Below are positions 2,808-64,000 of a stretch of DNA of 64,000 bases, piece after piece. Position 1 is the first letter of the stretch; every line of letters starts with the position of its first letter. Below the pieces are notes generated by a model. The model worked only from the letters and a program-made list of their open reading frames with translations, was not told the origin of the DNA and searched no databases. The translations under genes were made by a program, and so were the position numbers. Source of the DNA: Squalus acanthias (lineage: Eukaryota); assembly GCA_030390025.1 (NCBI GenBank), contig CM059453.1, forward strand, positions 248,001-312,000, read 5' to 3'.

Positions 2808-2975
2808 AGGGACGATCAGTGTACAGAGGCTGCTCGTGGCACCGCACAATCGACTAAACCAGCTCAGAATGACGAGATTGCGTACGCGACCGTCAATTTC
2901 ACCAACTATCGCAAACATGATAAATATATTCAAAATGAGGAGAACTGCGAATATGCAGCAATTAAACAGAACTGA
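2808..2975 (+). CDS. Upstream gene B paralogue, terminal exon (IAYATV, CEYAAI)
   Basis: Reads RDDQCTEAARGTAQSTKPAQNDEIAYATVNFTNYRKHDKYIQNEENCEYAAIKQN* after a gttacag acceptor. Confidence 0.87.
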   Translation, partial: RDDQCTEAARGTAQSTKPAQNDEIAYATVNFTNYRKHDKYIQNEENCEYAAIKQN

Positions 2976-16812: not shown

Positions 16813-19573
16813 ATTTTGGGAGTGAACAATCTATGGATTGTAAATCAAATCGTATCAGGAAAAGATTTTAAAATGTTAGCTATTTCTCTCGGAAAGATAT
16901 CCATTATCACAACACTTCCTGGATTGCAAGTTTTTGTTCGAACTCATAAAAAACAATTGTGTGAAGATATTGCCCAGTTCCATCTGTCACAATAGGGTGA
17001 ATGCCGCTGATTTTCATTTGCTTTTAATTGCGGCTTATTCACTGGACTCCTCGTGCTGGAGATATCGCTCCTGCTTTCGAACGTTTGAAACACTGACAGC
17101 TGCATACAGGACCTCTTCACTTTGAGCTGACTGGTTTGATGGAGCCCCTCTCACACCAATGTTTCTATACTTGTCTTGTCTCTGTAACAGAAAGTACTGC
17201 GTTAGATGTGGAGGTACTGAACCGGGTGAGACTGCGCTTACTATTTCAGAATAACCCGCTTTATTCCATCACTGCCACTATTTTAATGGTCCTATTCAGC
17301 TCCTTCTGCCTCGAAAAGGAATCCTTGGGCGTCCGCTGGCCCCGAGTACCGGCGCGCCAAGAGTATTGCCCCCTCCTCAATACTTAGCCGACTGATTCAG
17401 ATAGCGCCGCGAACGTTCAGAGGAGCGCTACCAAACAATATTGGAGACCGACCATTAATGTCCCTTTATATATTTAATAGGTTCACATAACACTTACATC
17501 GCACAGAGATCTGATTGGAGCTGTTTGCGGTGCCCAGGGTATTTCCAGCCACGCACCAATACTCCCCCTCATCTTCAGAACTAATGCTGTGAAATATCTG
17601 CTTTAGTTCACCGGTGGAAGACCTGCTGATCTCTGCACCATCTCGGAGCAATTTTAATCTGACCAGCGGGTACCCCATGGCCGTTCAGTATAATAATAAT
17701 GAGCATCCTTCCACTGTTACTATTGAGGAATTGAGGCACGGTTTCCTCAGTGCATCTGAAACACCCAAGATCATTGGTGTTATCGGAAAATGTCGGAGCA
17801 GAGGTATAAAATCAATCCGGTTGACAACCAAATAACAATATTAAAGCAGATTTGGTGGTTATATTGTCAACTGTAAATTGAAAAGCCAGCTTGAGATTGT
17901 TGATGTTCCACCGACAAGCTTATTTAGATCTGAAACATGCTTTAACTCAACCTTTCCTCCTCTTCTCTTCAAAGAGTTGTAGTGACAGCCTGGTCGTGGT
18001 TCTGCTCCACAGATACGTCAATCAAGCGGCCATTCCTCCCAGAGCAAGAACAGTGGGCTTTCCCATCCCTTAAACAGAGCTGTTGAGGCCAATTGTAGTA
18101 TCGCGACCACCGCCCCAGCCAACTCGACACAGACCCTCTGTTTCAGGTACTCTCTGGCTGCAGCTATATCAGGAATTGGGAGCTTTTGCAATAATATTTG
18201 ACGTAAACGACAACCATGGAGCGACAAATATTACTCCATGGATCTGTATCAGTGTTAAATAATACAACTTACAATAAATCTCAGATAGTCAATTTGGTTC
18301 ATTTTTTAAAGAAACATAGGCCATTCAGCACCTCGAGTCTGATCCACTGATCAATTAGATCATAGTTAATCCATATTTTAACTCCATCTACCCGCCTTTG
18401 CTTTAATGTAACCCTTAATAGCCTTATCTAAAAAAAATCTATCCATCGCAGTTTAGAAATTTTCAATTTTCCAGGCCAGCTATCACTCCACTGAGAATAA
18501 GAACAAGTTTGGATTCTATTTACCAACAGGATGGTAGAAGGAAGGGTACAGCAGTTACTTACAGTCCAGTGTAAGTGTTTCTTGAACGGTACCCACGATA
18601 CCATCAAATACAAGCTTACATCCCATCCTTTTCCCTTTATGGTCCAGTGATGGCGTGAAGGTGAAAGTTGATGAAACCGTCCAGGAACCCTCGAAACTTT
18701 GTCCACTGTGTCTTGAAGTTTTAGTCTCTTGCAGTGAAGGAAGTGTATCGTCGTCCTGAATCCACATCAGTTCAGGTGTGGCGGACGGGCAAGTGTTGGT
18801 GACACAGCAGGTCAAATGTGCTGTTTGTCCAGCAATCAGTCACCCAGAGACTGATATCCATGACTTATCTGTAAGAAGAGAAAAAAATTCGCGTTACACT
18901 TGCTATCAGTATTTAAAAAAAGTAGAGTGAAATTCAAGGCGTTTCAGCCCAACGCCTGAGATAATAGCTTGAATAAAAATTATTGTATTTTTCCATTGTT
19001 CTCTGGTGACGGACACGGACTCGATGGGCCGAATGAACTCCTTCTGTGCCGTTATGGCTCTATCGTGCAGGGGAAGGTGCCTATTGTCAGTTATTACTTA
19101 ACGGTTACAGAATCAATCAGTTGATATATGTGTTCCTCAACCTAATTATCACCCACTATTTCACATGAATTATTCATTCCTTCCAGCTTCTTATAGTTCA
19201 GTCACCACTCTATTGCACACAAGTGTTTCAACTCAAAATTAGTTCAGACAAAACATAGAAAACTGTGTTCAAGATTATGTTTCATATATGCAGTTGGGAT
19301 AGACTCATGGATACTCTTAGTTTCATGGCTCAATGTGACGTGAAATGCTTAATTTACCTGATGAGGCACAGGGGCGAATTTAACTGTTGCTTATAATTCA
19401 TTTGACCTCATTGAAGGTCGTGATAGGAGCGCTGCAGACGGTCTTCAGGGAGAGGAAAAGTTTAACTATCATCCATTGTTCCCATTAACAACAGCGGGAA
19501 AGTGTAAATATATCAGAAGAAAGCAAAAGTGAGAAGTCGCACAACACCAGGTTATAGTCCAACAGTTTTATTT

Positions 19574-19616
19574 GAAATCACAAGCTTTCGGAGCGCTGCT
19601 CCTTCGTCAGGTGAAG
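19574..19616 (-). ncRNA. Minimal type I hammerhead motif (inverted copy)
   Basis: UCAC-CUGACGA-A-GGAGC AGC GCUCC-GAAA-GC-UU-GUGA. Confidence 0.68.
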
Positions 19617-19706
19617 TGAAGAGATGCATATAGGCACAGCATATATAGTCAGAGAACACTGCCAGGTGATTGCAGTTAATCTTTCCAACTGCCCTTTATC
19701 ATAAGT

Positions 19707-19751
19707 GAAGTTGCCTGACGAAGGAGCAGCGCTCCGAAAGCTTGTGATTTC
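19707..19751 (+). ncRNA. Minimal type I hammerhead ribozyme motif in Penelope pLTR
   Basis: Stem I GAAGUUGC/GUGAUUUC, core CUGACGA(A), stem II GGAGC-AGC-GCUCC, GAAA-GC-UU. Predicted cut after 19743. Confidence 0.7.
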
Positions 19752-20369
19752 AAATAAAACTGTTGGGCTATAACCTGGTGTTGTGCGACTTCTCACTTTT
19801 GCTTTCTTCTGATATATTTGCACTTTCCCGCTGTTGTTAATGGGAACAATATATGATAGTTTTGTCCACCCCAGTCCAACACCGGCATCTCCGCATCACA
19901 GAAGAAAGCAAGACCCGGTTCGGGATTCAAGCCCCACTTCAGAGACTAAAGCAGAATCTGTAGCCTGACACTTCATTGCAGTACTGATGCAATACTACAA
20001 TGCTGGAGAAGCCATCTTATGCATGAGACGTTAATCCGATGTCCTGTCTTCCCTCACAGGTGGATGTAAAGGATTCGAATGTATTATTTCAAACGACCCG
20101 TGTCCTGGTTAACATATTGCATCAACCAGCACCTAAAACAGGTAATCTGGTCATTATTGCATAGTTATTCCTCCTATCCTTAAACCTTGTCCACTTATTC
20201 CCCATCAGAAGTACAAACCTTAACATTTTTTTCCAAATCCACTAAGGATTGAATTTTGACCCGCCGGTCTGTAGACCTGAAAACAACATTTAGTGTTTCT
20301 CTTTCTATCTGAACATTACAGCGAGCTTCTGTAAGTTCGTAAGAATGCCAGTGCCGAATATATGTACTG

Positions 20370-22776
20370 GTCAAAACATATCAAGTCAACTGGTCCAGAT
20401 GGGCTGCATCCTAGGTTGCTGAGGAAGCTAGGATGGATATAGAAGAAGCTCTGACCACATTCTTTCAATCTTCCATGGATATTGGAGTGGTACCAGAAGA
20501 CTAGAGGATTTCAAATGTTACACCGCTGTTCAAAAAAGTGGAGACGGATGAACCTGGGAATTGCAGCAAAATTAGTCTAACGTCAGTGGTGGGAAAGCTA
20601 AATAAGTCCACTGTGAAGGACAAGATTAATTCTCACATGGTGAAGCATGGGTAAATTAGGGACAGCCAGAACGGCATAGTTAAAGACAAATCGTGACTCA
20701 CTAACCTGATTGTGTTATTTGATGAGGTACTGCTTGCGGGGAGGTTTTCTGGTACTGTTGGGGTGGTGGGGTGGGCGTGGGGGTTGAACTAACGTGGCAG
20801 GGAGATGGGATATGGAGTAAGGGGTGATGCACAGCCAAATATAGAGGAACAAATAAGTCAGCCTGGAAGGCAGAGCAAATATGTAACGGCACAAGGGTGT
20901 ATGGCAAGGCTAGTTGGCAATTATTTTAATGCAAGGAGTCTAGTGAGAAAGGCAAATGAATTGAAGTTGTTGATGAACACATGGGAGTATGATATTGTTG
21001 CTTACACAGAGACATGGTTGAGGGAGGGGCAGGACTGGCTGCTCAATATTCCGGTGTATAGCATCTTCAGGCGAGACAGAGGGGGGTGTAAAAGAGGAGG
21101 GGTTTCGCAATATTAATAAAGGAGTCAATTACTGCTGTAAGGAGGGATGATGTCTTAGCAGGTTCCTGTAATGAGGCCATATGGGTAAAACTTAAAAACA
21201 AAAAGGAGGCAAGCACTCTGCTGGGAGTATACTATAGGCCCCCAAACATTCAGGGGGAGATATAGGAACAGATATGAAGGCAAATCTCAGAGAAATGTAG
21301 AAATAATAGGGTAATAATAGTAGGGGATTTCAACTTCCCCAATATTAACTGGGATAGTCAAACTCTGAAAGGCTTAGAGGGTGCGGAATTCTTAAAGTGC
21401 ATCCAGGAGAGATTTTTGAGCCAGCATGTGGAAAGTCCTACAAGTGAGAGGGCGGTACTGGACGTAACTCTGGGGAATGTAGCTGGGCAAGTAGTAGAAG
21501 TGTCAGTGGGAGAGCATTTTGGTGACAGTGAACATAATTCGGTGAGATTGAAGTTAGTCATGGATAAGGAAAAAAGATGGACCAGAATAAAGGTTCTAAA
21601 TTGGGGGAATGCCGATTTTAATATGATAAGGCAGGATCTGGCCAAAATGGAGGGATCAGCTACTTGTAGGAAAATCCACATCAGTGCAATGGGAGTCTTT
21701 CAGAAAGGAAATAGAGAGAGTACAACGCAAACATGTTCCCGTAAATGTCAAGGGTGGGACCAACAAGCCCAGGGAACACTGGAGGTCACGGGTTATACAA
21801 GAATGGATGAGGAAAAAAAGGGTGGCTTTTGGCAGATACAAAGGACAAAAAACAGTGGAAGCCCGCGAGGAGTATAGAAAGTGCAGGGGGGTACTTAAAA
21901 AAGAAATTAGGAGAGCGAAGAGGGTGCATGAAAAAACACTAGCAGGCAAAATAAAGGAAAATCCCAAGGTGTTTTATCAATAAATTAAGGGCAACAGGAT
22001 AACCAGGGAAAGAGTAGGGCCCATTAGGGACCAAAGTGGCAATCTGTGCGTAGAGCCGAAAGATGTAGGTGAGGTTCAAAATGAATATTTTGCATCTGTA
22101 TTTACTATGGAGAAGGGTAATGAAGGTATAGAAATCAGGCAGGGGTATTGTGATATCCTTGAAGATAATAGTATTGAGAGGGAGGAGGTACTAAAGGTTT
22201 TAGCCGGCTTAAAAGTGGATAAATCCCCAGGCCCTGACGGGATGTATCCCAGGCTGCTGTGTGAGGCAAGGGAGGAGATTGCAGTGGCTCTGACACAAAT
22301 TTTCAGAACCTCTCTGGCCACAGGGGAACTGCCAGAGGAATGGAGACCAGCTAACTTAGTACCATTGTTCAAGAAGCGCAGTACAGATAAAACAGGGAAT
22401 TACAGGCCAGTGAGCCTAACATCAGTGATAGGAAAGTTATTCAATAAAATTCTGTTGGACAGAATTAGTCTCCACTTGGAGAGGCAGGAATTAATCAGGA
22501 ATAGTCAGCATGGCTTTGTCAGGGGGACATCATATCTGACCAATTTGATTGAATTTTTCGAGGGGGTGACCAGGTGTGTGGATGAGGGTAGTACAGTTGA
22601 TGTAGTCAACATGGACTTCAGTAAGGCTTTTGACAAAGTCCCACATGGGAGATTGGTAAAGAAGGTAACAGCTCATGGGATCCAGGGCAACTTGGCACAT
22701 TGGATCCAAAATTGGCTTCGTGGTGGGCCGAATGGCCTCCTTCTGTGGTGTAAGATTCTATGATTCAATGATTCTA
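20370..22776 (+). mobile_element. Composite CR1: old RT fragment (20370-20727), second CR1 (ORF1 end, APE endonuclease, RT N-part; 20728-22720) and old tail
   Basis: YFNARSL, DIVAYTETWL, GDFNFP, GDSEHN, KSPGPDG and DFSKAFDKVPH motifs; tail ggccgaatggcctccttctgtg..gattctatgatt. Confidence 0.9.
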
Positions 22777-24565
22777 TTCTATAACACACTCATGGGTATC
22801 ATGCAGTGTACCAGCCCTGCAGCTGCAGCCTGTGACTTGGGCCAAGAGTAACAAGATATATTTACACTTTAAGCTCAAGTTAAATGGCACTGAGGAGATG
22901 GAATATAAAGCATAAAGGAACAATTCAAAAAACTTACATAAAATAGAAAGAGTGACCTTATATCCGGAAGAATATCCTTCTATAATATTCTGGGCAGTGG
23001 TGATCTTCAATACGGAATAATAGTCACCTCGATCGCGCATGCTGATGTCCTTTAACCGGAAGGAATATTGTTTCTTTACCAAATAGCCGGTGAACTCAGT
23101 TCTACCGCTATATTTCAAGGACACGTTGTCTGAATCCCGCGAATCATAGTTAATCGAGACCCCTGAGGTTCCAGGATCATAACCCCCCTTTAACCACATA
23201 CCTTCTGGACTGCGGCCATAGCCGGGATAATCAAATGTACACTGATCTCTGCACATGACCGGTTCACCCCGACACTTTCCACGGCACCTTCGCAGACCAT
23301 CGTGAACTATGCACAACTGGTGAGAAAATAGAAATTAAACACCAATTGAAACCCGCAACAATATAGCAATTAAAACATACCCTGACCGTCAAGTTAAATA
23401 CTATGAATTTAACCTTTAAACATCCACAAACATATTCATTAGTACATCTAATGAAATTCGTGCAATTTTCTCCAAAACTCTCTAAATTCTATTAAATATT
23501 CCGTTACAAGCCAATAAATCATAGTGTAATTATCAAATCAATCCTATATAATACATAATAAAGTTCTGAATAAAATATACATTAAATACCCACTGCGTGA
23601 ATGCACAAATCATTGACTAATCGTATGTTATGTCTGAAACATTGATATTTTGTCTGACATAAATTATTAAAAATGAATATTTTACCTTCGCTAATTATCA
23701 GAATGGAAATAAATCGAATACTCTTCATGACTGTAGGCGGTTGACGATGTCAAAATGACATAAATTGTTTTTATCTCAGATATAAGTGATTTGGTTTCTG
23801 TGTTTGGTCCGCCGGTAATATATTGGAGTTTGTAATGAATCGAATCACAATATTAGGAGGTCAGCTGTTCGCCACCCACCATTCATTGGGAACCGTGGTA
23901 GCTCACACAGCTTTCGCCACTCCTCAAATGTTGGTGATCTAAACTGCTGGAAATCTGGACTCCTCAAATATAACAGTTTACATCAGTGTGTGGCCCAGCT
24001 GTTGCAGGATATATGAGGCTCAACTACCGCTGAAGAAACATGAGCAGAGAATCACCCAGCCACCTCATCATCTGCACAGTTACAGGACAGGCAGTGGCAC
24101 TTTAGATTGCAATAGCTAAAATAGCCTCTACATCAACTTTAGACGCCTCAACTCTCAACTCCCACACTCTGAGCTATTTATCAGCGCTTGAACTGCGAAT
24201 GTTTCAAGTCTGAAGCTGTGGTTATTTCTGTAGCCGTTGTCGACAGACGTGTGGGTTGATCACCTTCAGTAGTTCGGGGGCACAACACGTATCTGAAATG
24301 TCAAAATTTCAAGTGTTTCTCAGAAGACAGTTCAAGAGCGTAAAGTGCAGTTCTTAGAAGTGACTTCAATTCTTTATATTAACAGTCCAGCGAGCTGAAA
24401 TCTGCTGAAATTAACTCATTGAGATCCGAGTTGCTACAATGACGGGTTTATGAAGTTTCTGAGTTTAGTGCTAGAACTCTGAGGTGTGACTTGAGCTTTT
24501 AGATTCGAGTCTCAGCGCTGCTGGAAATAATGTGGATATTTTTATTTACGGGACCAAATCCCTGC

Positions 24566-29289: not shown

Positions 29290-31343
29290 AGAATTACTCT
29301 GTCTCCCTATATTGACCACACTGATCTGTTTGTCCGAAACTATTGCTTCAATAAATTTTATCTGTGTCTGTTGCAGCAATATTTGTATTTACGACAGGAA
29401 CCTTCAGTCCATTTCACACGTCACAGACCTCATAACTAAATTTCAATAAATGCACTGCAACAAATAGGGTGACATTTGTGTTTATTTTTGCAAAATTACT
29501 GAGCTTGAGTGTGAATGTAAAGAGTTAAATCAATTAGAAGAAAGTTTGTTTACCACAGCGTCAAACGGTTAACTGTCAAACAGCTCCTATCTACGACGTC
29601 AAAGATGCATATTGGAGTGCTCATGAACGAAGGTGACGAAACCACACGTCTACAGAGCACGTAAGCTAACTAACTGTAGTTAACAACTCTTCAACATGCA
29701 TCTCGAATTAGCTGCCAGGAAGCTGAATATGTGTGAAATGTGAGTCAGAGGCTTCTGCAAGCGTGGGCGGTGCTATTCTGACGCAGACGCCAATATATCA
29801 ATATCATAAGTAAAAGTACATTTGGTGTTTGTGTGTGATGTTAGAGAGAGAGAGAAAGAGATGTTGTTTCTGTATGAAGTATACTTTAGCAACTGTTAAA
29901 CATACCATAACATCATATTTTGTTATAGTCGGTCACACGCAGACCATGTACAAGATGTGCTAGCTGCCTACCTCACCAACGGAATTGATGAAGTGAGCAC
30001 TGTTCCTACAGATCGGTAGGAACAGAATCGGACTTCCCCGTTAGTGTGATCCTTATTTGTAAAGATATGCAAGATGTGACTGGAAAGTTGAATGCAGAAA
30101 ACTGAATGCTGTTAATTGTGAAATAGGTTCTTAAATTTGAGAATGAAATCGGCAGCAGATTCCAGCCATGAGGAGTTGTGCGCTCGTTTCGTAGATTTTC
30201 ACTCCAGTGCTTCAGGATGAATCAATCTATGTGCAAAGTGGGCAAATAATCTAATATTCCTGGCCGGGTGGGAAACGTGCGGGAGGGCTCAGCCCAGCAT
30301 AAAACACGCCGCGTTGAATTCAAATAATAAATCAACTGATGACTGACTCTGGCGAAGTTGATTTTGAGATCTGAGCCTCTTGTTCCCAATTAGAATAATT
30401 AGTTCGGTCCTGAACCCACGTCAATTTCATTCCACTTGCTCCCAGTGAAATTTAGAGAAAAAATGTTTCAGAATTACTATGCATCCAGGATTCTGCCCAC
30501 ACTGATCATGTTGCAGGACCTGTTGTTTCAATCATTTTCAGCTATGTATTTTCCAGCGGTGTTTGCATTTTCGACAAAAAACTTCAAGTCCATTTTACAT
30601 GTCCCAGACCTCAAAACTAACTTGCAATAAAAGCACTGCAACAAACAGGGTGGATTTTCTGTTATATTCTGCAAAATTAGCGAGCTTGAATGGGAATTTA
30701 AAAAGATAAATCAATTAGAAGAAAGGCTGTTTACTGACAAGCAGCTCCTATCTCTGACGTCACAGATGCATGTGTAGCGCTCCTTAACGAAGGTGACGAA
30801 ACCACACGTCGACCGACTGCAGCAAGCAAACTAACTGAGGTTAACAACTCTCCAACATTCATCTCGTATTAGCTGCCAGAAAGCTGTATATGTGTGAAAT
30901 GCGAGTCAGAGGCGTCTGCAAGCGTGGGCGGTATCATTCTGACGCAGATGCTAATATATTAATATCATAAGTAACAGTACATTTGGTGTTTGTGTGTGTT
31001 TGTTCGAGAGAGAGAGAGAGATGTTGCTTCGGTATTAAGTATTCTTTAACAACAGTTAGAAATACCATAAATCATATTCAGTAACAGTCGGTCACACGCA
31101 GCCAATGTACATGATGTGCTAGCTGCCTATCTCACCAACGGAGCTGATTGAGTGAGCACTGTTCCTGCAGATCGGTATGACTCGAATCGGACTTCCCCGA
31201 AAGTCTGATGCTGATTATCAAAGAAATCCAAGATGTGACTGGAAAGAAGAATACTGAAATCTGAATGGTGTAAATTGTGAATTGGGTTCATCATTTTGCG
31301 AGTGAAATCGGCAGCATTTTCTAACCATGAGGAGTTGCGTGCT
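29290..31343 (+). repeat. Local direct duplication of the gene B upstream region and first codons (29290-30184 and 30470-31343)
   Basis: Both end in gaaatcggcagca..ccATGAGGAGTTG. The first copy breaks off after 5 codons (ATG at 30168). Confidence 0.88.
30790..31326 (+). promoter_or_regulatory. Putative gene B promoter
   Basis: Lies directly 5' of exon 1. RUNX-like AACCACA near 30800, Ets/PU.1-like ACTTCCCC near 31191 (kept in all three copies), GAAA repeats at 31242-31310. Motif matches only. Confidence 0.45.
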
Positions 31344-31369
31344 GCTGCCTCTCATAATGTTGACAGAAG
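31327..31369 (+). CDS. Gene B exon 1, signal peptide MRSCVLLPLIMLTE
   Basis: ccATGa start, hydrophobic 14 codons + 1 nt, then GTACAT donor. Same 43-nt length and phase as gene A exon 1. Confidence 0.85.
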
Positions 31370-34300
31370 GTACATTTCTGATGCTTTTTTGCAATTTCTG
31401 CAAGTGATTTAGATCTTGCGCGAAAGGAACAGCAATATAACGAATATGAATGATTTTTTTGTTATTGATTTCAGAACTTGTGAAATAGAAATGTCATGAT
31501 TGTTTAACGCGTGCGTTGTTGCTGTATTATAGCGTATACAGCCTATTCAAATAATATTAAAATACAGGGATTTTCAAGTTATTTTTATTGTAAAGCACAT
31601 TTAATAATATTTACTTCATATTGATTGAGTGATTCAAAGGAGATTCAATAGATGTTTAATATTTATTTTGATCAATATTTAATGAGCATTTTTAATGGAC
31701 GTTCTCTTACATGTTAGTGGATATGTATTCGGTTTTTAGATGAGTATTAAATATGTATATTACCGGTTCATAAATCTCCCATCAAATAGGTATTCCTATG
31801 GCCATTTCAATAGGTGTTGTGATTGGAATTTATTTAGTATTTTGTCTTGTTTATGAAAAGTCCTTCACTGATATTTTAATTGCTATTGTGAATGGCGATT
31901 ATTTGTCAATTAACAAATACTTTAATGGATGATAAAGATGCTGAAATGCATTTTGAATGGCTAATTAAAGGGTGTCTAATTTATTTTGCTCAGTTGTTTA
32001 TAGTGCTGCATCCTCTGTGATGATACCAAAAGTTGTGTCGGCGGTGGCCGGTTCATGTGCAGAGATCAGGTGCATGTTTGATTATCCAGTCAATCGGAGA
32101 ATCGCTAGTATGAAGTGGTTAAAGAGGAAACATGCTCCTGGTAACCAAGGTTACTCCATTATCTATGAATCTGAAGATCCATACAGGCAGCATTATAAAT
32201 TTGGTGGAAGAGCTGAGTTCAAGTGTAACATTGAAATGAAACAATGTTCCTTCCTGCTAAAAGATATCAGGAAGAGTGATGAGGGTACATACGAACTCAG
32301 CATAAAGATCGCTTCTGTCTGGGATACTAATAGACTTCGGACTCTGCGTACTGACGTATTTCTTTCTGTATTAGGTGAGTTAACCCTTTGTTCCTTTTGT
32401 ACATTTTTACTCCAGTGCTTCAGTATGATTCAAAATATGTGCAAAGTGGCAAGTATTAAAATGTCCCTGACCGATCTCAAAGGGTAGTTGAAACATAGGG
32501 TGGAGGGATACTGATAAGGGACGCAGATGTCTGATATCCTAAACACAGAAGTATATTGAAATTACAAGAGTAAAACAGGCCGTTCGTCCCAGCCAGTCCG
32601 TGTTGCTGTTTGTCCAACGCATGAGCAACACTCCGAATCGCATGTGCCTGCTCAGTTCCCAAATCCCTTTATTGCAATTCCCTTCAAACAGCTGTCGAGC
32701 CTATTCTGAAAATGTCCACATGAGGATAGATTAGTACTTGTTGACTGAACCTAAAACTGACGTTGTAGGTCGTACTTACAATACTTAAAGCAGCAGCTCA
32801 TTATTTCTAATGAAATGAAAGGTAATGAAACGAGGGCGGTTGCTAGAATGGGTGACTTATCTGGAGTGAGAGATTTGACCAGGGCGGCCATTTCAAATTC
32901 TACTTCAGTCTGCTTCTATCTCCTCTGCCCCGTTGCTTAATAAGTTGAAGCACTTCTGTCAAATCATCACAAAATCAGTTTTAAACTAATTAGACCTGCC
33001 CCAACTTTTAAATAATTTCTTGTTATTTAAAATTCCTCATACCAGCCAGAAACTACGCGAGTCCGCCATAAATCCTTCCTATAGACTGGAGCCCCATACC
33101 CGCATTCTTACTTCAACTGTGAACGAACTACTGCTCTCGTTAGAATCTCCACTATTCTCGAATTTATATTATGGATCTCTTGTCATTAAACCCAGAGCTC
33201 CAGAAACATCATCCTACGCTTTCCCACAGGAGCTGCTGCTTTTACTGTCTCATGAACCTGACCCCAAATTCCTCTGCACCTCCACATCTCCCAGCTTCCT
33301 ACGGTTCAAATGTAAATCTATTGCCTCATATTTTCTGACCTTTAATTATATCTGCCTCTTATCTCCCCATTCTACTATATCTCCAGTATCCGTTTGTAAC
33401 TCGCTTTAGTTCTCTAGTTATCGCCTGGAAGTTGTACTTGCAAGTTTGGCATGGGTGTCAAACTGGCGATATTGGAGGCGCCTCTCATTATACACCTCGC
33501 CCATTTTTCATTTTGTTGGAATCCAATTCCTGCCGGGAAATTTTGACATAATTCTCTTTAGCGCTTTATCCAAATTATTGATGCACCCAGTGAATAGAAG
33601 CAAACCCACAGGACAAAACTCTGGGACACCGTACTGGGATCCAATTATTCTTAGCAACTGCGCTGAACAGCGATTCGCTGCATCGTCACTTCTAAACAGT
33701 TTATATTGCAATTTCTACCTAATCCTTAATTCCAAACCTCTTAATATCTTCTCCAATAATCTCCTGTATTTGCCGTCGGCAATGGCTGCTTGATTACATT
33801 TCAAGTTACTTTTTGGTGAAGCGTCTTTTGACGCCGCGAGTACTTAAAAAGCGTTGAATTAATGCAGTCTTTGTTCGTGCCTTTCCCTATCCAGCGCTTA
33901 TTTACCCCGCTTTTAATTAGATCTTAATTAAAAATTAGATATTTCAGTTACGTGAAAAACAGTTCAAGTTAGGATGTATTTGTTCATTCCAATCCCACGG
34001 CTACAAATGTTATTTCTGCTGAAGCCTTCTTCAGATTGACACTTGAGGAACCTGCTCTGCTTCTCCCACACAAGGTGGTTTTACCTGTCCTTTGTCTGGT
34101 CTGTCCATGTCTTGAGCATTGTCGTTCTATATTGACGTTTCTTGACAACGGAATCGAGATCTCTCTGGGTCTGCATTAATCACCTTCACATAGGCAATTG
34201 CTGGTGCAGAACGAGGTGTACGAGAGGATGAAATATTCGTGGTATTTGAGGAGTTAACGTTAATTCTAATTCCAGCGTGCAAATTTTGTTCACTGGACAA

Positions 34301-37300
34301 TGTCCATGATACAAATAATTTGGAGATATAACGACTAATGGTTAATTAATTGGGGCCATATGTTACCCGATGAGGCATAATACTGCTTTACAACTGCGAG
34401 GAGTAATTCAGAATGGCGAACATACTTGCAACACGTGGTAGAGAAAAATGAACAAAATGTGATTTTCTTGTTATTTCTTTCTCAGATTTAGTTGTAAGCC
34501 ATCAATCTGCGTTTTAACATTGAAATGTACCTAACAAGCTGGTTGTCTCCCTTTTTTATAGAAAAGCCAGAGATTTCAGGTGATGGGCAATTGATCGCTG
34601 GGCAAACTGCACGATTGAACTGTTCCATCACCCACAACTGCCCGGATGGCAACCTGAAACTGAAGTGGATTAATGACAATGTGTCCCTTCCTCCCCCAAT
34701 GGATACTCAAGATGGAGCAGAAATTAGCAATGAAAGTTTAGGTTCTCGGACAGTTTCATCCGTGATCACCTTTACACCATCACCTGCTCATGACGGGAAA
34801 ATTCTGGGATGCACAATTCTAATTGATGGTATCCCAACTCATTCAGCACAAAATCTTACCTTGGAGATTAAAGGTAAGCGTCCGGTCAAATGTAATCAGA
34901 TTTATCCTGTAGCACAACGGGTTCCAAATTTGCACTTTTACCACAAATAATTTATGAGGGGTTAGAACTGCATCAAAGAATGCATCATGAAAAGCTCAGC
35001 CTCTGTACCAGGGGAGCTCACTTCGATAATCAAAGGTTCGGAATGGCTCACATCTAATTCTCATCAGTCATATTTCATTAGAAATATTCATATCCATGAA
35101 TCAATGATGGTGCCTCCAACAGATTTTTTAATATGATTGTTAATCTTTATTCTATGAACTTCCAGTCAGGTTCTGAGTTTAGTCAGTCATAGATGGAAGC
35201 AACAAAGGCCATGCCTAGTTAGGATCTGAAGCTGTGACACCAGATCTCAGCTCTGGTGGTTGAGCTTAATAAGAACTTAAGAATTAGGAACAGGAGTAGG
35301 CCATACGGCCATTCGAGCCTGCTCAGCCACTCCGGCAATCATGGCTGATCATCGAACTTACCTCCAATTTCCCGCCCGATCCCCATACCCAATATAATTA
35401 ATTAATTATGAACTCAATTATGCTTATTCAGCAATCACGTTTTGCATTTACGTCTGTTTCAGATGGACTGGACATCCCAACCGTCAACTCCTCTATAGCA
35501 GCTGTGGAAGGAAGTTCATTATTATTATACTGCACGGCCTGCGGGAAACCCCAGGTCAGTTTAAGATGGGTGAAAAATGGTGAAGAGACCAGCAGTTCTT
35601 CCACTAGTGAACTTAAGCAGATATTCCACAACATTAGTTCTGAGGACGACGGTGAATATTGGTGCATAGCTGAAAATGCCGTGGGCACCACCAACCGCTC
35701 CACACAGATTTCAGTACAATGTAAGTGTGTATGAATTTTCAATTAGACAGTAGCCTTTCACTTCAAGAATTCTGCATTAAATTCCAATTTTCTCTTGCCT
35801 GCTTGCTGGAAGGCACCCGTGTGCATCAGTTCGGCATAGTATCATCCCTTCCCGCGGAAATAGCGGCAAACTACCTCGATGGCTCCAATAATGGAAACTA
35901 ACCTGGCATCTCGCTCAGTATGACAGGAATGGAAGATGGCACAATGCCTCATAAATGCAGCAGGTCTTACAATTAAGAGGTTATGACAGCAGCATTTTTA
36001 CTGGGAAATTTAATCAACATCTAATTCTTAATAAATAATACTCATCGTCTGAAGTAAACAGTTTTCCAATCCTTAGAACTGACTTGCAACAATTTGATGA
36101 GCAGAAGTTCTCCAAAATGAAATCTGATAAAGTGGTGTTAAGCCAACTTCTGTTACTTGTATTAATGTTGAGTTAACAGTGTAATATTCCGAGACAAGTT
36201 ACTTTGAACTGTCGCCTAGTTACCCGGACATTTATTGAAAAATTACTTCAGTCCATCACAAACGAAGATGTTGAAAACAGTACACAAAGTGAAGAAATTG
36301 AAATTAATTCACCTGTTAAAACAGTGACGGGTGAATCACGTTTTTGGGTATGTTATAGATAATTAACACTCTGAGCTTGCTCCGTCTGAGGAAACTTCCA
36401 CAATATCTGTCAGGACAGGTCTGGTTGGACTGAACACCAATTAGGTTTAATATTAAATTGTTCCTTACGAGCTCACCTGTTATAAGTGAAAATATAATAA
36501 GCCATCAACTGGTGCAACATATGCTGCTTCATCTTAAAATATATCTACCAGAACTATTATGGTAAGTTCAACTCATGAATTAATTGTACTTCGACACTGA
36601 CATGATCATTTACTATTGAAGTTTCCATTTTTTTTAGATAAACCCACAATTTTAGCAGGCCCGACATGCACATGCTCTGAGAAATGGACGAATTGTTCCT
36701 GCCGGATCAGAGCCAATCCCCCGGGCAACATCACATGGGACCTCAATGGGAGAATCCTCACTGGGAACAGGTCAGATGTGGAAATCATCTCCTGGGCGGT
36801 GAACAGTCATCTCGTGAAGAGCTCCCTGAGATTGACTCACCCAACCGGAACCGGAAACCTGATCTCATGTGTTGCAGCAAACGAGCACGGTGATTCTGTC
36901 AGTAAATACCAGCTCCACTCTGAGGGTACGTGTTTAATTTATCTGTAATTTAATACTATAAGGGAGTTGGTGCATCACTGGTCAGTCAGTAACTGAACGG
37001 TGTTAGAGTCAGCAAATACCAGTTTCACTCAGCAGGTCCATACGGAATCTATCTTGAATTAGTGTAAGGACCACTTTCATCAGTGGTCAATCACCAACTG
37101 AAAGGTGAGGTCGGCATTATCCATTTTAACATTCATTCTTCTGCAACTTGTTCGGTTTATATTTTCAAGATAAGTTGAAATTATATGAGCACCAGAAATA
37201 GCCAGTGATCCTGGAAAACAAATTCTTCTGAATTAAGTTAAACTCTTTAGAAAATCCTGAATTATCTCGATACATGATAGCAAACTGCAATCTACCCTTT

Positions 37301-40300
37301 TGTAGCTACATGCTCATTTCTATCGTGTTCAGACACATTTGGGTTTGTAGAGCAACATTTGGGGCAACACGGTGGCATAGTGGTTAGCACCGTTACCTCA
37401 CAGCGCCAGGGACTCGGGTTCGAATCCAGCCACGGGTGACTGTCTGTGTGGAGTTTGCACATTCTCCCCGTGTCTGCGTGGGTTTCCTCCGGATGCTCCG
37501 GTTTCCTCCCATAGTCCAAAAATGTGCGGGTTAGGTTGATTTGGCTATGATAAATTGACCCTTAGTGTTAGGGGGATTAAATGCGTGTGGTTACGGGGAT
37601 AGGGTGGGATATGTGTCGGTGCAGGCTCGATGGGCCGAAATGGCCTCTATCTGCACTGTGGGGATTCTGTGATTCTGTGAGGTGAGATATTTGTCGGTGC
37701 AGGCTCGCTCGGCCGAAATGGCCTCTATCTGCACTGTGGGGATTCTGTGATTCTGTGAGGTGAGATATTTGTCGGTGCAGGCTCGCTGGGCCGAAATGGC
37801 CTCTATCTGCACTGTGGTTATTCTGTGTGATTCAGTAGCCTAAGCAAAATTGAATTATCGCCACAGATTATAAATCTCACCCACGTAATTGGTGACCGTA
37901 GCAGCCCTGTATTCCGATCAGATTAAGCACACTGTTTTTCCTAGGGTGGGTTGTGGAGTGAACTTAATTTGTAAATTGAGATTTTTACATCAGTGAATCT
38001 TAATTTATTAATTCAAATTTCCGCCAGTCCGCAACACAGGAACAAAAGGCTTTTACGCAAGGATCAACAGGTTGAGTCAAGTGGAGCACATAATGTACCA
38101 TTAGCTTTGTGATCCGAATATGAAGGAAACTTGCTTCCTCACATTCATAAATGTGCTTCCAAGATTGTTGTTTAATCCCACATTCCTAATATAGAGCAAT
38201 GTTATCCAACATTTCAGGAATATTCTCCAGGACAACCGTCCTCATAATAGGGGGAGGAATCATCGGGCTTGTTATTCTAATTGCAGTCGTACTCACGCTG
38301 AAGATAAAAAGGTAGGTGTTATTTATTTATTATATAGAATTAAGTTTCAAAGGAAACCTGCATCAGAAAGTCCGTGTATTAAAATCTCCTTTAAATTGAC
38401 TCCCATGAGTACAGTGTGCATCAGGCTAAACTGGTGCGTACAGTAGGAAGGTCAATCATTCCAGACCAGTCGTTCGCATCTCCCGGCATCAAATACAGAG
38501 TAATATTACTGTTTCTGTTGCTGCTTTTATGGGGCAGCCTCACACGAGCCTACTTGCCATGTCAGGCTCTCAGCATAAAACTACACCAGATTGATACTGA
38601 AGTTCTATCAATCAAGCTAGTCCAGGAAACAGTAAAACAACAAGCAAATAGTAAAAGTAACGTGACACATACGTTAACCGTAGTTCTTAAGTTTGTTTGG
38701 CTCAAGGAGTCGAACATTATATTTCAAAATTGGGTGTGACTGATGTGCTAAAGTATGATATAAGCAGTTATTTATGTTGCACGTGTTATCTTATTCTTTC
38801 CAGAGATTTAAGCTATTTGGTCTGACTAGCTTTCTTTGAAAGCTCCAGACAGACTCGCTGCTTTTCATAGACAGGCTGATAATTAACTTCAGAATTGTGA
38901 CCGGCTCCAAGTGAATTCAAATAACACCCAGTTAGGTTTACAATCTGCTACCAATCAAATTTATCCTTCAACCAATCGGACAGGATGTATACAATTCAAA
39001 TCTATGACGTTGCTTCTCGGATAGGCGCCGCCCCTCAACAGCCAATGTTTCGGCAACAACCGCAGCAACATGAGCCAGAAGACTCTTGTGAGTGGTGCTA
39101 GCTTTTAAACCTTCATGTACCATGATATATTTAAAGAAGGCAATTCCATGCTTAATAATATCAACTAATCAATGATCTCAAAAAGATTGATGAGGAATAT
39201 TGATGTATTCCTAATTTCTAACTCCAATGTGTTGAAGCGGTCTACCTAATAATAGAAAGGACTGCGTTTATACATTGAAACACTTGCATCTGCTTTTTAC
39301 CCAGGTTGAAATCATTAATAAACCGCGCACTGACCGTTATTTATCACACTCAACTTTCACCTAGAGCAATCAGCACCGTATCATTAACGTATATTAATGC
39401 CTATCATAGATAAAGTAAAATGTTCCCTTTTGAAATGTTGGCTGGTGGAAATTGAAAAGAATTGGGTTGCGGATCAGGTCTGTGCTAATCGGGAGAAGTA
39501 AAAGACATAAGGTGCCACATAAAAGGTTATTACATAAGATAAGGGCTCATTGGGTTGGGGGTAATATAGTAGCATGGATATAGGATAGGTTAACAGACAG
39601 AAAACAGATAGTAGGTATTAACGGATCTTTTTCAGGTTGGCAGGCTGCAAGTAGTAGGGTGCCGCAATGATCAGTATTGGGGCCTCAGCTATTTACAATC
39701 TATATTATGATCTAGATGAAGGGACCGAGTGTAATGTATCCATTTTTGTTGATGATACAAAGCTAGGTGGGATAGTAAACTGTGAGGAGAACACAAAGAG
39801 TCTGCTAAGGGATATAGGAGTGGGCTGTAAGGTGGCAGATGTAGAATAATGTCGGGAAATGTGAGGTTATTCACTTTCGTATGGTGAATAGCAAAGAGAA
39901 TATTTTATAAATGGTGAGAAACTTTCAAATGTTGGTATTCAGAGAGATTTGGCTGTCCTCGTTCAAGAAACACAGCAAGCTAGCATACAGGTACAGCAAG
40001 CAATAAGGAAGGCAATGGTATGTTGGCCTTTATTGCAACGGGGTTGGAGTATAAGAGTAAGGAAGTCTTGATAAAATTGTACAGGGCCTTGGTGAGACCA
40101 CACCTGGAGTACTGTGCACAGTTTTGCTCTCCTTATCTAAGGAAGAATATACTTGCCATGGAGGCGGTGCAACGAATGTTCACTAGGTTGATTCCTGGGA
40201 TGAGAGGGCTGTCCTATGATGAGAGCTTGTGAAGGAATGGGCCTATACTCTCTGGAGTTTAGAAGAATCAGAGGTGATCTCTTTGAAACATAGAAGATTC

Positions 40301-42762
40301 TGAAGGGGATTGACAGGCTAGACGCTGACAAGTTGTTTCTCCTGTCTGGTGTGTCTAGAAATAGGGGGCGTAGTCCCAGGATAAGGTGTGAGCCATTTAA
40401 GAACGAGATGAGGAGGAAATTCTTCGCTCAGAGGGTTGTGAATCTTTGGAATTCTCTGCCCCAGAGGGCTGTGGATGCTCAGTCTTTGAGTATATTCATG
40501 GCTGAGATAGATAGATTTTTGGACTCAAGGGGAATCAAGGGTTATGGAGGTCCGACGGGAAAGTGAGGTTGAGGTCGAAGTTCAGCTATGACCTTATTGA
40601 ATGGCGGAAAAGTCGCGAGGGGCATTATGGCCAACTCCTGCTCCAATTTCTTATTTCTTATGTTAAGTCTTTCCTGACCTACTGACGTCCTTCATCGCGC
40701 AGGCGCAGTGTGCTTTCATTAAACATTCCAGTTAATTAAGAGAAGTGACTCGTTTGCATTTGTTATTATTCAGGAAGAAACACGGAGAAGCTGCACGTTT
40801 CTCCGAAGCACACGATGATTTGGTGATTTACAGTCGGGTGCAGTACGCACTAAAGGCTGACGTAAGTGATGCCAAGCTGGGCTGACAATTGAAGGATGTT
40901 TGGTGTGCTTTCAACCAGCAATGACTCATAACGGGCAATACCAAACAGATAAACTGGAGTGTCAGAAACTTGTTGACCATTAAGGGAGGATTAACCGCCT
41001 CACGCCGCTAAGAGTGCAACATAGCTCCAGACTCTACGTATAGTGACCTACTACATCCAATTAGGGAGTATTTCTCACCTTGGCGTTCCTTCAAAAAACA
41101 AATTCTTAATATAAGAATGCCTTGCCAATGTCATCTTACCCCCCTACCAATTAGGTCTCATCTGTTAAATGCCCAACAAGATCACAAAATGTCAGCGACC
41201 CCAGAGGGGATAATCGTTGCCATTCCTCATTTTTATGTGTAATTTCCGAGTTGCATCTTGCTGCCGATGTGGTCCCCATGTTCCCCACCTATGGGTAAGA
41301 AGGTTCTGGCTTCAGGCTTCACCCCAGCATTTGAACCTATAATCTGGGCTGATACTTCACTTCAACACAAAGGTGTGCAGCATTGCCGGAAGACACGTCC
41401 TTTCGATTAGATGTTAAACGAGGCCACGTTTGTTTCCTCCTATGGAGGGAAACGTTCATATGGCCCTACTGTGGGGACGAATGAGAGTTTTCCCAGTGCC
41501 CGTGCTAACATTTCTCCCTCAATGAACACCAGCTAAAACAGATTAATTCGCCATTCATCCAATTAACTGGTTGCTGCATTTTTCCTACAATAGCGGCCGG
41601 AATTCAAAAGTTATTATTGCATAGCAGCGCTTCGGTCTTAATAATCACAGAATCATACAGCCCAGCAGGATGCCATTCAGCCCACGGTGCCTTTGCTGGC
41701 TGTTTGAAAGAGCTAAAACATTAGTCACACTACACTTCTTTTTACCCTTAGCCCTGATTGGATGTTTTTTTTCATGTTCACGCATATATCCAATTTCCTT
41801 TTGAAAGTAGCGATTGAATCTGCTCCCACCGCCCTATGAGAAGTGCATTCCAGATCACAACAACTCGCTGAGTTAAAAACATCCTTCTTACCTCGCATTT
41901 TGTTCTTGACCCAAATATCTTCAATCTGTGTTATCTGGTTATCGAAGCTCCTGCCAGTGGAAACAATCTCTCCTTATTTACTGTATCAAAATTCTGCAGA
42001 ATTTTGATCACCAATATCTAATCTCCTTTTATCATTCACTAAACTAACGAGAACAACTCCAGTTTCCCTCGACTGACCGTTTAAGTGTAGTCCCTCATTT
42101 CTCCTATAATTCTAGTAAATTTGCACTGTACGCTCTCTAATGCATTGACATCCTTTTGACAGTGTTATGCAAGAATTGGACACAATACTCCAGCCGAGGC
42201 ATAACCGCTGATGTATAACGGTTCACCGTATCTAACTTGTTTTCATAATCTGTACCTGAATTTATAAAAACCCGGATTTAGAAGCCTTAGAATCATAGAT
42301 TTTTACAGCACAGAAAGAGACATTTCGGACCATAGTAACTGTGCTGGCTGTTTGAAAGAGGTTTCCAATTTAGTCGCACACACCAGCCTTATCGACTCGT
42401 CCGGATAGACAATTGCAAGTTCTTTATTTCTTGCATCAAGACTTAACAACGCTCATTTCATGAATCCGCGCCTTTAGACAACTTACCAGGGATAAAATAG
42501 TAAGATTTCTTCTGTTGCAGACAGCAATCTCCCATCGCATTCTGCTCCATATCTGCAATAACTCCACATCTAACACAAATACCTTCCGTTACAGAGGGAC
42601 GATCACTGTACCAAGGCTGGTCGGGGCGCCGCACAATCGAATAAACCAGCTCAGAATGACGAGATTGCGTACGCGACCGTCAATGTCTCCAACTTCCGCA
42701 AACATGATTACTTTATTCAAAATGAGGAGAGCTGCAAATATGCAGCAATTAAACAGAACTGA
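31327..42762 (+). CDS. Gene B: intact Siglec/MAG-like inhibitory Ig-superfamily receptor, 8 exons, 543 aa (signal, V-set, 3 C2-type, TM, ITIM tail)
   Basis: Exons are 31327-31369, 31994-32374, 34562-34873, 35463-35720, 36638-36925, 38218-38311, 40774-40861 and 42595-42762. All introns are GT-AG, with phases 1,1,1,1,1,2,0. Total 1632 nt = 544 codons with no internal stop. Siglec-type Cys pattern present (GSCAEIRCMFDYP ... QCSFLL; THNCP in d2). Confidence 0.9.
31994..32374 (+). CDS. Gene B exon 2, Siglec-type V-set Ig domain
   Basis: ttttgctcag acceptor and G|GTGAGT donor, 381 nt. Reads VSAVAGSCAEIRCMFDYP..W..GRAEF..QCSFLLKDIRKSDEGTY. Confidence 0.95.
33420..33760 (-). mobile_element. Highly degenerate CR1 RT fragment in gene B intron 2
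   Basis: GVPEFCPVGLLLFTGCINNLDKALKRIMSKF resembles GVPQGSVLGPLLF.IYINDLD..ISKF. Confidence 0.55.
34562..34873 (+). CDS. Gene B exon 3, C2-set Ig domain 2
   Basis: tttttatag acceptor and G|GTAAGC donor, 312 nt. LNCSITHNCP..W..SVITFTPSPAHDGKILGC is typical of Siglec domain 2. Confidence 0.95.
35463..35720 (+). CDS. Gene B exon 4, Ig domain 3
   Basis: gtttcag acceptor and T|GTAAGT donor, 258 nt. Reads EGSSLLLYCTACGKP..W..EDDGEYWCIAENAVG. Confidence 0.95.
36638..36925 (+). CDS. Gene B exon 5, membrane-proximal Ig domain 4 (MAG domain-5-like)
   Basis: ttttttag acceptor and G|GTACGT donor, 288 nt. The C..CSC..ANP..W..SSL.L..C.AAN.HG pattern resembles the membrane-proximal domain of MAG and multi-domain Siglecs. 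Confidence 0.93.
37361..37833 (+). mobile_element. HE1-type V-SINE with triplicated CR1-derived tail (78-bp period)
   Basis: tRNA head with A box (tggcatagtgg) and B box (gggttcgaatcc). V-domain tgtgtggagtttgcacattctccccgtgtctgcgtgggtttcctccgg. Tail repeats start at 37615, 37693 and 37771. Confidence 0.9.
38218..38311 (+). CDS. Gene B exon 6, transmembrane (GIFSRTTVLIIGGGIIGLVILIAVVLTLKIKR)
   Basis: atttcag acceptor and AG|GTAGGT donor, phase 1 in and phase 2 out. Uncharged 22-aa hydrophobic run followed by basic residues. Confidence 0.9.
39507..40665 (+). mobile_element. CR1 LINE 3' fragment in gene B intron 6 (duplicate of 1-870)
   Basis: KVPHKRLL, FVDDTKLGG and LVRPHLEYC motifs with stops and frameshifts; CR1 tail. 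Confidence 0.93.
40774..40861 (+). CDS. Gene B exon 7, cytoplasmic with ITIM VIYSRV
   Basis: ttattattcag acceptor and GAC|GTAAGT donor, 88 nt, phase 2 to 0. Reads KKHGEAARFSEAHDDLVIYSRVQYALKAD. Conserved at 978-1065. Confidence 0.88.
42595..42762 (+). CDS. Gene B exon 8, ITIM IAYATV plus distal ITIM-like CKYAAI, stop
   Basis: ccttccgttacag acceptor with an upstream CTAAC branch point. Reads RDDHCTKAGRGAAQSNKPAQNDEIAYATVNVSNFRKHDYFIQNEESCKYAAIKQN*. Confidence 0.9.
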   Translation, partial: RDDHCTKAGRGAAQSNKPAQNDEIAYATVNVSNFRKHDYFIQNEESCKYAAIKQN

Positions 42763-51659: not shown

Positions 51660-54600
51660 TCATTTGCTTTTAATTGCGGCTTATTCACTGGACTCCTCGT
51701 ACTGGTGATTTCGCTCCTGCTTTCGAACCTTTGAAACACTGACAGCTGCATACAGGACCTCTTCACTTTGAGCTGACTGGTTTGATGGAGCCCCTCTCAC
51801 ACTAGTGTTTCTATACTTGTCTTGTCTCTGTAACAGAAAGTAGTGCGTTAGATGTGGAGCTACTGAACCGTGTGAGACTGCGCTTACTGTTACAGAATAA
51901 TCCGTTTTATTCCATCACCTCCACCATTCTAATTGTCCCATTCAGCTGCTTCTGCCTCGAAAAGGAAACCTTGTGCTTCCGCTGGCCCGAGTAACGGCGC
52001 GCCAAAAGTATTGCCCCCTCCTCAACACTCAGCCGTCTGATTTTGATAGCGCCGCGAACGTTCAGAGGAGCGGTACCAAACAACATTTGAGATCGCCCAT
52101 TAATGTCCCTTTATAAATTAAATAAGTTCACATAACACTTACATTGTACAGAAATCTGTGTGGAGCTGTATGCGGTGCCCAGGGTATTTTCAGCAATGCA
52201 CCAATACTCCCCCTCATCTTCAGAACTAATGCTGTGAAATATCTGCTTTAGTTCACCGGTGGAAGACCTGCTGATCTCTGTACCATCTCGGAGCAATGTT
52301 AAACTGACCGGCGGGTTCCCCATGGTCGTTCAGTATAATAATAAAAGACTTCCTTCCATTATTACTATAGAGGAATTGACGCTTGGTTTCCACAGTGCAT
52401 ATGAAACACGCAAGATCATTGATGTTATCGGAAAATGTCGGAGCAGAGGTTTAAAAAACAAACCGGTTGACAAACAACGAAGAATATTAAAGCAGGTGGT
52501 TATATTGTCAACTGTAAATTGAAAAGCCAGCTTGAGATTGTTGATGTTCCACCGACAAGCTTATTTAGATCTGAACCATGATTTAACTCAACCTTTCCTC
52601 CTCTTCTGTTCAAAGAGTTGTAGTGACTGCCTCCACGTGGTTCTGCCCCACAGATCCGTCAATCAAGCGGCCATTCCTCCCAGAGCAAGAACAGTGGGCT
52701 TTCCCATCCCTTAAACAGAGCTGTTGAGGCCAATTGTAGTAACCCGACCATCGCCCAGCCAACTCGACACAGACCCTCTGTGTCAGGTACTCTCTGTCTG
52801 CAACTATATCAGGAATTGGGAGCTTTTGTAATAATATTTGACGTAAACGACAACCAGGGAGCGACCAATATTACTCCATGGGCCTGTATCAATTTTAAAA
52901 AATACAACTTATAGTAAATCTCAGATAGTCAATTTGGTTCATTGATTATAGAAACATAGGCCATTCAGCATTTCGAGTCTGTTCAACTAATCAATTAGAT
53001 CATGGTTAATCCATATTTTAACTCCGTCCACCAGCCTTTGCTTTATTGTAACCCTTAACACACTTACCTATAAAAAAAACTATTCATCGCAGTTCTGAAA
53101 TTTTCAATTTTCCAGGCCAGCTATCACTCTACTGAGAATAAAGACAAGTTTGGATCTTATCTGCCAACAGGATGGTAGAATGAAGGGTACAGCAGTTAAT
53201 TACAGTCCAGTGTAAGTGTTTCTTGAACGGTATCGACGACACCATCAACTATAAGCTTATATCCCATCCTTTTGCCTTTATGGTGAAGGTGAACATTGAT
53301 GAAACCGTCCAGGAACCCGCGAAACTTTTGCCACTGTGTCTTGAAATGTGTTTCTCTTGCAGTGTAGGAGGTTTATCCTCGTCCTGAATCTACATCAGTT
53401 CAGGTTTGGCGGATGGGCAACTGGTGGTGACTGAGCAGGACAAATGTGCTGGTTGTCCAGCAATCAGTCACCCAGAGACTGATATCCATGACTTATCTGT
53501 AAGGAGAGAAAGAAATTCGCGTTACAGTGGCTTTCAAAATAAGAAAAATAGGGAGTGAAGATAAAGGCGATTCAGCCCAACGCCTGAGATAATATCTTGA
53601 ATAAAAATTATTGTTTTTTTCCATTGTTCCCTGGTGACGGACACGAACTCGATGGGCCGAATTACCTCCTTCTGTGCCGTTCTGACTCTATGGTGCAGGG
53701 GAAGGAGCCTATTGGCAGTTATTACTTAACGGTTACCGAATCAATCGGTTGACGTATGTGTTCCTGAACCTCATTATCACCCACTATATAACATGAATTA
53801 TTCATTGCTGGCCTGTTTCTTATAGATCAGTCACCACTCTATTGAACACAAGTGTTTCAACTTAAAATGAGGTCCGACAAAACATAGAAAACTGGGTCCA
53901 AGATTATGTTCCATGTCTGCAGTTGGGATAGAATCTAGGATACTCTTAGACTAATGGCTCAGTGTCACGTGAAACGCTTAATTTACCCTATGAGGAACAG
54001 GGGTGAATTTAACTCTTGCTTATAATTAATTTGAACTCATTTAAGGTCGTGATAGGAGCGCTGCATACGGTCTTCAGGGAGAGTGAAAGGTTATCTATCC
54101 TCGTTTGTTCCCATTAACAACAGCGGGAAAGTGCAAAGATATCATAAGAAAGCAAGACCCGGTTAAGGGATTCAAGCCCTAACTCAGAGACTAAAGCAGA
54201 AGCTGTAGCCTGACACTCCATTGCAGTACTGATGCAATGCTACAATGCTGGAGATGCCATCTTATGGATGAGACGTTAAACCGATGTCCCGTCTTCCCTC
54301 ACAGGTGGATGTAAAAGATCCCAATGTATTATTTCAAATGTCCCGTGTCCTGGTTAACATTTTGCATCAACCAGCACCTAAAACAGATCATCTGGTCACT
54401 ATTGCATTGTTGAGATATCCCTCCTATCCTTAAGTCTTGTCCACTTATTCCCCCTCAGTAGTACAAACCTTGACATTTTTGTCCCGAATCCAAAAAGGAT
54501 TGTATTTTGACCCGCCAGTCTGTACATCTGAAAACAACATTTAGTGTTTCTCTTTCTAACTGAACATTACAGCGAGCTTCTGTAAGTGTGTAAGAATGGC

Positions 54601-63962: not shown

Positions 63963-64000
63963 ATGAGGAGTTCCGTGCTGCTGCCTCTCATAATGTTGAC
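63963..64000 (+). CDS. Downstream gene B paralogue, exon 1 (MRSSVLLPLIML..., cut by window end)
   Basis: Near-identical to 31327-31364 and preceded by the homologous promoter region. Confidence 0.8.
   Translation, partial: MRSSVLLPLIML

Follow-up and report, generated by a model that had tools for sequence, protein, structure and literature searches.

The arginine of the F strand is regarded as what defines a Siglec: reviews of Siglec function, in the parts available to us, describe it as essential and name Siglec-XII as the human exception (PMC13324755, PMC10122656), a natural loss that is recent and affects a single gene. For fish, the accessible portion of a teleost study recognizes four regular Siglecs, states that the inhibitory CD33-related ones are absent from fish and leaves sharks unmentioned (PMC7226832), and Siglecs come up a single time in the available excerpt of the paper on the whale-shark genome (PMC8455134). 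Here we analyze 64,000 nucleotides from Squalus acanthias (assembly GCA_030390025.1, contig CM059453.1, positions 248,001 to 312,000; hereafter the window, whose own numbering is used throughout), which carry a Siglec-like gene that we call B. On balance we favor the reading that B is a likely inhibitory immune receptor, MAG-related and of Siglec fold, that belongs to a shark clade without the essential arginine and would bind its ligand outside the canonical sialic-acid site.

The V-set domain of B is encoded by exon 2 (31994..32374, + strand, open in frame 3). Its motif DEGTYELS (32278-32301) aligns residue for residue with DSGTYNFR of mouse sialoadhesin (phmmer E 9e-13), which places Ser117 (AGC, 32299..32301, + strand) at the site of sialoadhesin Arg97, so that the essential F-strand arginine is missing from B as the first-pass annotation had proposed. 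In an AlphaFold model (predicted local distance difference test, pLDDT, 88.3) the arginine-site position lies in a long V-domain strand, 97-107. The N-terminal Trp, also reported missing by that annotation, is indeed replaced by Ser21 (TCC, 32011..32013, + strand), a site at which 8 of the 17 closest relatives described below have Cys. Residues 129-135 of the G strand hold no aromatic either, and the aromatics of both the A-strand and the G-strand sialic-acid contacts are thus absent. What has been retained, again in agreement with the annotation, is the Siglec cysteine set: Cys36, Cys41 and Cys99 correspond to the sialoadhesin cysteines and Cys168 lies in domain 2. Cys41 and Cys99 are the B-E intra-sheet cysteines of the Siglec V set, with Leu116 at the F-strand cysteine position, and Cys36 and Cys168 are the predicted pair between V and the first C2 domain. 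In two relatives modeled with V followed by a d3-type domain and no d2 (P0011 of Heterodontus and P0159 of Scyliorhinus), Cys36 has given way to Asp, in line with a bond between Cys36 and Cys168. This replacement suggests itself as a natural sign of the V-d2 disulfide; P0020 lacks d2 yet retains Cys36.

A family search of 1.84 billion representative sequences gave 182 matches at E 0.001. The ten closest single-domain matches that were looked up proved in every case to be shark proteins, under automatic names of the Siglec, MAG, sialoadhesin or nectin type. Additional look-ups, together with two profile searches, brought in other shark and ray members, and these results assign the window to a cartilaginous fish. 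When compared with solved structures, the family profile matched MAG best (E 1e-64), followed by Siglec-8 (8e-36), CD22 (3e-31), and then Siglec-5 and CD33 (4e-26). In V-domain trees, which held no CD33-related row, the elasmobranch rows formed one clade (support 99/99 with 49 rows and 97/96 with 39 rows), with turtle MAG and mammalian sialoadhesin apart. Within it, B falls in a subclade in which none of the 17 rows has the arginine (12 Ile, 3 Ser, 1 Leu and 1 Phe; support 96/88), a grouping also found with 15 rows (98/89) and with a Shimodaira-Hasegawa-like approximate likelihood-ratio test (SH-aLRT) value of 95. B is a member of this Arg-less clade both by the position of its V domain and by the non-basic residue at its arginine site. 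The rows come from 11 named species and the window: Heterodontus (3), Heptranchias (4), Scyliorhinus and Chiloscyllium (2 each), Pristiophorus, Carcharodon, Cetorhinus, Stegostoma, the ray Narcine and the window (1 each), which we take to include six shark orders, in a sample that is incomplete and contains several near-copies. Identity among the clade members is lowest in the V domain and tail (46-47%, against 54-66% in the C-type domains), and the identity of B itself to the shark rows is 37-50% for V and reaches about 78% for the C-type domains.

Among family proteins outside the clade, 11 of 16 keep the arginine and the other 5 have Lys, Ala or Thr. Because the arginine is present in the nearest tree row (P0010; 87/57), in four ray proteins and in all 9 outgroup rows, loss is the likely direction of change, and the simplest reading would be a single loss on the stem of the clade, before the split between galeomorph and squalomorph sharks. 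That split took place about 200 million years ago or more. Narcine forms a long branch, and trees placing it outside the clade were not rejected (approximately unbiased test, p-AU 0.55 and 0.15); on this account the loss may also have preceded the split of sharks and rays. Two further genes of the window that lack the arginine, A1 and A2, pair off outside the Arg-less clade (99/96), which makes their Val and Leu a loss separate from that of B. The first-pass annotation had read these two residues correctly and set them beside the serine of B; since A1 and A2 are pseudogenes of the Arg-keeping side of the family, they are uninformative about B. Arg-less V domains of Siglec fold also occur in P0132 and P0140, which represent clusters with eel and mormyrid proteins; the trait is therefore not confined to sharks.

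Other features of the family were apparent from the same comparisons. P0159 and P0055 are mosaics in which V comes from the Arg-less clade and the transmembrane (TM) segment, in P0159 the tail as well, is of A-type, suggesting recombination between the subfamilies. A ray branch (P0072, P0188, P0189 and P0190) keeps the arginine and has no N-terminal Trp where the N-terminus is present. In the fused Heptranchias model P0186, residues about 850-1547 correspond to another Siglec-like gene, one that is more distantly related, has additional C2 domains and carries Thr at the arginine site; it adjoins the cluster with a G-protein-coupled receptor gene between them.

The counts at two columns on neighboring strands bear on an alternative in which the cation has moved rather than been lost, a C-strand Lys or Arg or a G-strand Arg or His now holding the carboxylate of sialic acid or a sulfate, so that the clade would have remained lectins for anionic glycans. 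In B the candidates are Lys55 (32113..32115, + strand), which immediately precedes the core Trp on the C strand, and Arg133 (32347..32349, + strand) on the G strand. Of the 17 clade rows, 9 have Lys or Arg in the first column, compared to 1 of 7 family rows that keep the arginine and none of 9 outgroup rows, and Arg or His occupies the second in 12 of 17 clade rows, although the G-strand alignment is gappy there. At one column or the other, Lys, Arg or His is found in 16 of 17 clade rows compared to 2 of 7 Arg-keeping and 2 of 9 outgroup rows, but the rows are kin and hence represent few events. The adjacency of Lys55 and Arg133 to the arginine site is presumed by us from the general strand register of V-set domains, and this too counts against the proposal. 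The independent A-type loss in P0016 (Ala) is accompanied by an Arg at the C-strand column; the catshark Thr losses, A1 and A2 are not accompanied by a C-strand cation, whereas P0031 has one while keeping its arginine. In favor of the proposal, the D-strand Arg87 is nearly invariant; against it, most rows have lost the aromatic partners. A precedent exists in Siglec-6, which binds sialylated glycolipids without the canonical arginine according to the part of a review available to us (PMC10122656). Taken together, we consider a relocated cation unlikely as the explanation for the clade, although it is the chief competitor of the reading that we favor.

The first-pass annotation had also drawn attention to basic patches, an additional cysteine and a GxxxG motif. 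Both basic stretches are present in the V exon but do not distinguish B: its net charge of +7 shares second place in a set of 15 clade rows that extend from -5 to +12, and lies within the range of 11 A-type rows (-5 to +11) and above that of seven sialoadhesin and MAG rows (-1 to +3). The additional cysteine, Cys92 (TGT, 32224..32226, + strand), does stand where Gly is usual, with Gly in all 22 family rows that cover the column. The GxxxG motif, GGIIG at 38253-38267, proved to be a family trait, occurring in or beside the TM segment in 10 of 13 other TM-bearing clade rows compared to 1 of 7 A-type rows. Such features are what might be expected of a dimeric or homophilic adhesion receptor whose two chains would be joined through GxxxG and an unpaired cysteine of V, with another V domain or a nectin-like protein as the binding partner. 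An unpaired V-domain cysteine does recur in the clade at a place other than Cys92, given the 8 rows with Cys at the old Trp site; B has there a Ser one base away from Cys, and has gained Cys92. However, Cys92, on which the disulfide-linked dimer suggested in the first-pass annotation depends, is private to B, and since a single base separates its codon from Gly, a polymorphism or an assembly error may account for it; the high variability of the V domain suits a changing ligand better than homophilic binding. Glycine-rich TM segments also occur in ordinary CD33-related Siglecs, and we judge the adhesion receptor to be a very unlikely account of B.

The gene as a whole has the organization of an inhibitory receptor. 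B consists of eight exons (31327-42762, + strand) with 543 open codons and GT-AG boundaries at 7 of 7 introns. Exon 1 (31327..31369, + strand; ATG, GT donor, phase 1) encodes a signal peptide with the same leader as in the Heterodontus and Heptranchias relatives. The V domain is followed by a Siglec d2-type C2 domain with Cys168 (exon 3, 34562..34873, + strand), an I/C2-set domain with an unconserved Cys272 (exon 4, 35463..35720, + strand; Pfam I-set 5e-13) and a membrane-proximal MAG-d5-like domain (exon 5, 36638..36925, + strand), the family profile here aligning to residues 300-480 of MAG 5lf5. Exon 6 (38218..38311, + strand) encodes the TM helix, which includes GGIIG and has no charged residue, as expected of receptors with ITIMs (immunoreceptor tyrosine-based inhibitory motifs). 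The tail is divided between exon 7 (40774..40861, + strand; donor GAC|GTAAGT), which agrees with the tails of relatives and contains VIYSRV (40823-40840), and exon 8 (42595..42762, + strand), which contains IAYATV (42664-42681), CKYAAI (42733-42750) and the stop codon. Exon 8 was detected solely by comparison with the tails of relatives (tblastn, E down to 1.5e-12). VIYSRV and IAYATV conform to the ITIM consensus [I/V/L/S]xYxx[L/V] as given in the accessible part of the teleost study (PMC7226832), and CKYAAI is ITIM-like. At the level of sequence, the annotation of B as an intact inhibitory receptor is therefore upheld by the open frame, the seven introns and the three tyrosine motifs of the tail. 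Elsewhere in the family, rows with a full tail have ITIM-type motifs, and some models have none. Intron 6 of B contains an exon-like stretch with a strong GT donor (38984-39088), one reading of which would give an in-frame stop and a short tail without ITIMs; comparison with the tails of relatives lent this stretch no support.

A second copy of B, B0, is represented in the window by its last two exons (978..2975, + strand), whose frames are open and retain all three tyrosine motifs, and allows an assessment of whether B is a living gene. Over the 1730 sites of intron 7, B and B0 show 8.3% differences and 5 indels. In a neutral simulation run at half the intron-7 rates, 0.24% of 5000 copies kept frame and splice sites intact. 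Of 95 conserved columns, B deviates from the family consensus in 5, which ranks it 9 of 26 and indicates that decay has gone no further in B than in its relatives. These results tell against a relaxed or recently idle copy within an old clade, which would have no working ligand site and be drifting like human Siglec-XII: an intact frame is improbable under neutrality (about 0.2% of simulations), and the departure rate of B lies in the lower half of the family. Such a copy would nevertheless account for the near equality of nonsynonymous (pN, 0.070) and synonymous (pS, 0.077) differences when B and B0 are compared over their two tail exons, although the neutral signal could stem from B0. It would also fit the private changes G92C and E536K, the unconserved Cys272 and Cys344, and the fact that the neighbors A1, A2 and a B-type relic are all dead. 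We regard an idle copy as distinctly improbable. In the last exons of B (42595-42762) and B0 (2808-2975), 14 of 56 codons differ, 12 of them changing the amino acid, and both tyrosine motifs of the exon survive.

The reading we favor for B is thus that of an inhibitory receptor with a ligand outside the canonical site, and the non-sialic-acid ligand suggested in the first-pass annotation is plausible. The loss of the arginine greatly predates B and is common to all 17 members of the branch, and the branch therefore likely reads a different signal. The GFC face of the V domain, where the former arginine site is mostly Ile and its surroundings vary, might bind a protein, lipid or pathogen surface. 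Clustering of the receptor would then lead to phosphorylation of the ITIMs by Src-family kinases and recruitment of SHP-1/2, as in other ITIM Siglecs. Siglec-XII, which lacks the arginine, still recruits SHP1/2 according to the available part of its description (PMC11343606). Weighing against this reading are the similar pN and pS of the tail exons, the private G92C and E536K, the probable flanking of the site by Lys55 and Arg133, either of which could substitute for the arginine, and the binding of sialosides by Siglec-6 without it (PMC10122656, as far as available).

More tentatively, sharks could have split a MAG-derived Siglec cluster more than 200 million years ago into an Arg-keeping arm and an expanded Arg-less inhibitory arm with new recognition chemistry on the same face, be it a cation on the next strand or a non-glycan site. 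If so, immune checkpoints of Siglec fold that work without the canonical site would exist in them as a natural, conserved family. That the Arg-less clade was kept and expanded across the six orders implies a selected function of the Siglec fold beyond that site. The clade is of greater significance than B alone, whose private cysteine is a feature of one gene. Our literature search, whose coverage left out some papers on Siglec evolution, found no description of an old, expanded Arg-less Siglec clade; Arg-less Siglecs are already known from Siglec-XII, from which the clade differs in its age and expansion. The ITIM-rich Siglec-like clusters of cartilaginous fish also stand against the statement on fish in the accessible part of the teleost study (PMC7226832). 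Heptranchias has matched Arg-plus and Arg-minus paralogues in one species, which could be used for direct tests.

The window as a whole is a tandem duplication (about 91% identity) that contains, besides B, the tail of B0, the leader of a third copy B2 (63963..64000, + strand, cut by the window end), the B-type relic and the two A copies on the opposite strand. In the relic (30168..30266, + strand) the start of the leader is fused to intron-2-like DNA and the V exon is deleted, as seen by self-BLAST (29290-30184 to 30470-31343 and 30184-30266 to 32392-32473). A1 (17017..23728, - strand; Val at the arginine site) and its duplicate A2 (51663..57170, - strand; Leu) are A-type pseudogenes with stops and frameshifts. 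Neither has a d5 or TM exon and they have stop codons in common, so they likely died before the duplication. Tandem duplication, the shuffling of domains and the turnover of pseudogenes appear to be the ways in which the family evolves. Nowhere in the window was an activating partner with a charged TM segment seen. Long interspersed nuclear elements with reverse transcriptase, presumably of the CR1/L2 family, lie at 14179-16815 (- strand, with long open frames) and 20793-22763 (+ strand); they are confined to the first repeat unit, indicating insertion after the duplication. A 400-base palindromic insert (19464-19861, 85% self-complementary) is found in an intron of A1 and not in A2, and a 50-base minisatellite lies upstream of both A copies (24566-25202, 12.7 units; 58010-59030, 20.6 units).

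Compared with known systems, B is closest to MAG (Siglec-4, PDB 5LF5), the best solved match to the family profile, with which it shares the cysteine pattern of V and d2 and the d5-type membrane-proximal domain. It differs from MAG in having four immunoglobulin domains rather than five, no arginine, no N-terminal Trp, three tyrosine motifs and a place in a tandem multigene cluster with pseudogenes. The domain count, the missing arginine and the position of turtle MAG outside the elasmobranch clade rule out B as a MAG orthologue, its d5-type domain notwithstanding. Relative to domain 1 of sialoadhesin (Siglec-1), Arg97 and Trp2 are both Ser in B and the G-strand Trp is missing, and B has a short ectodomain and an ITIM tail. 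The mammalian CD33-related Siglec cluster resembles this locus in its tandem ITIM-bearing V and C2 receptors, its rapid turnover and its pseudogenes, but by profile scores, the trees having no CD33-related row, the family is nearer to MAG than to Siglec-8, Siglec-5 or CD33. Shark RefSeq models named Siglec 8/12/13/14, MAG-like, Schwann cell myelin protein-like or nectin-4-like belong to the same family; the names are automatic best-hit labels, none of which notes the missing arginine or the common clade. Human Siglec-XII likewise combines the Siglec fold and ITIMs with loss of the essential arginine, but its loss is described, in the available parts of the sources, as recent, human-specific and limited to one gene that is being eliminated (PMC11343606, PMC13324755), whereas here it is clade-wide in an expanded group. 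Lacking the defining arginine and aromatics, B is best described as Siglec-like rather than as a canonical Siglec, despite its inhibitory-Siglec build.
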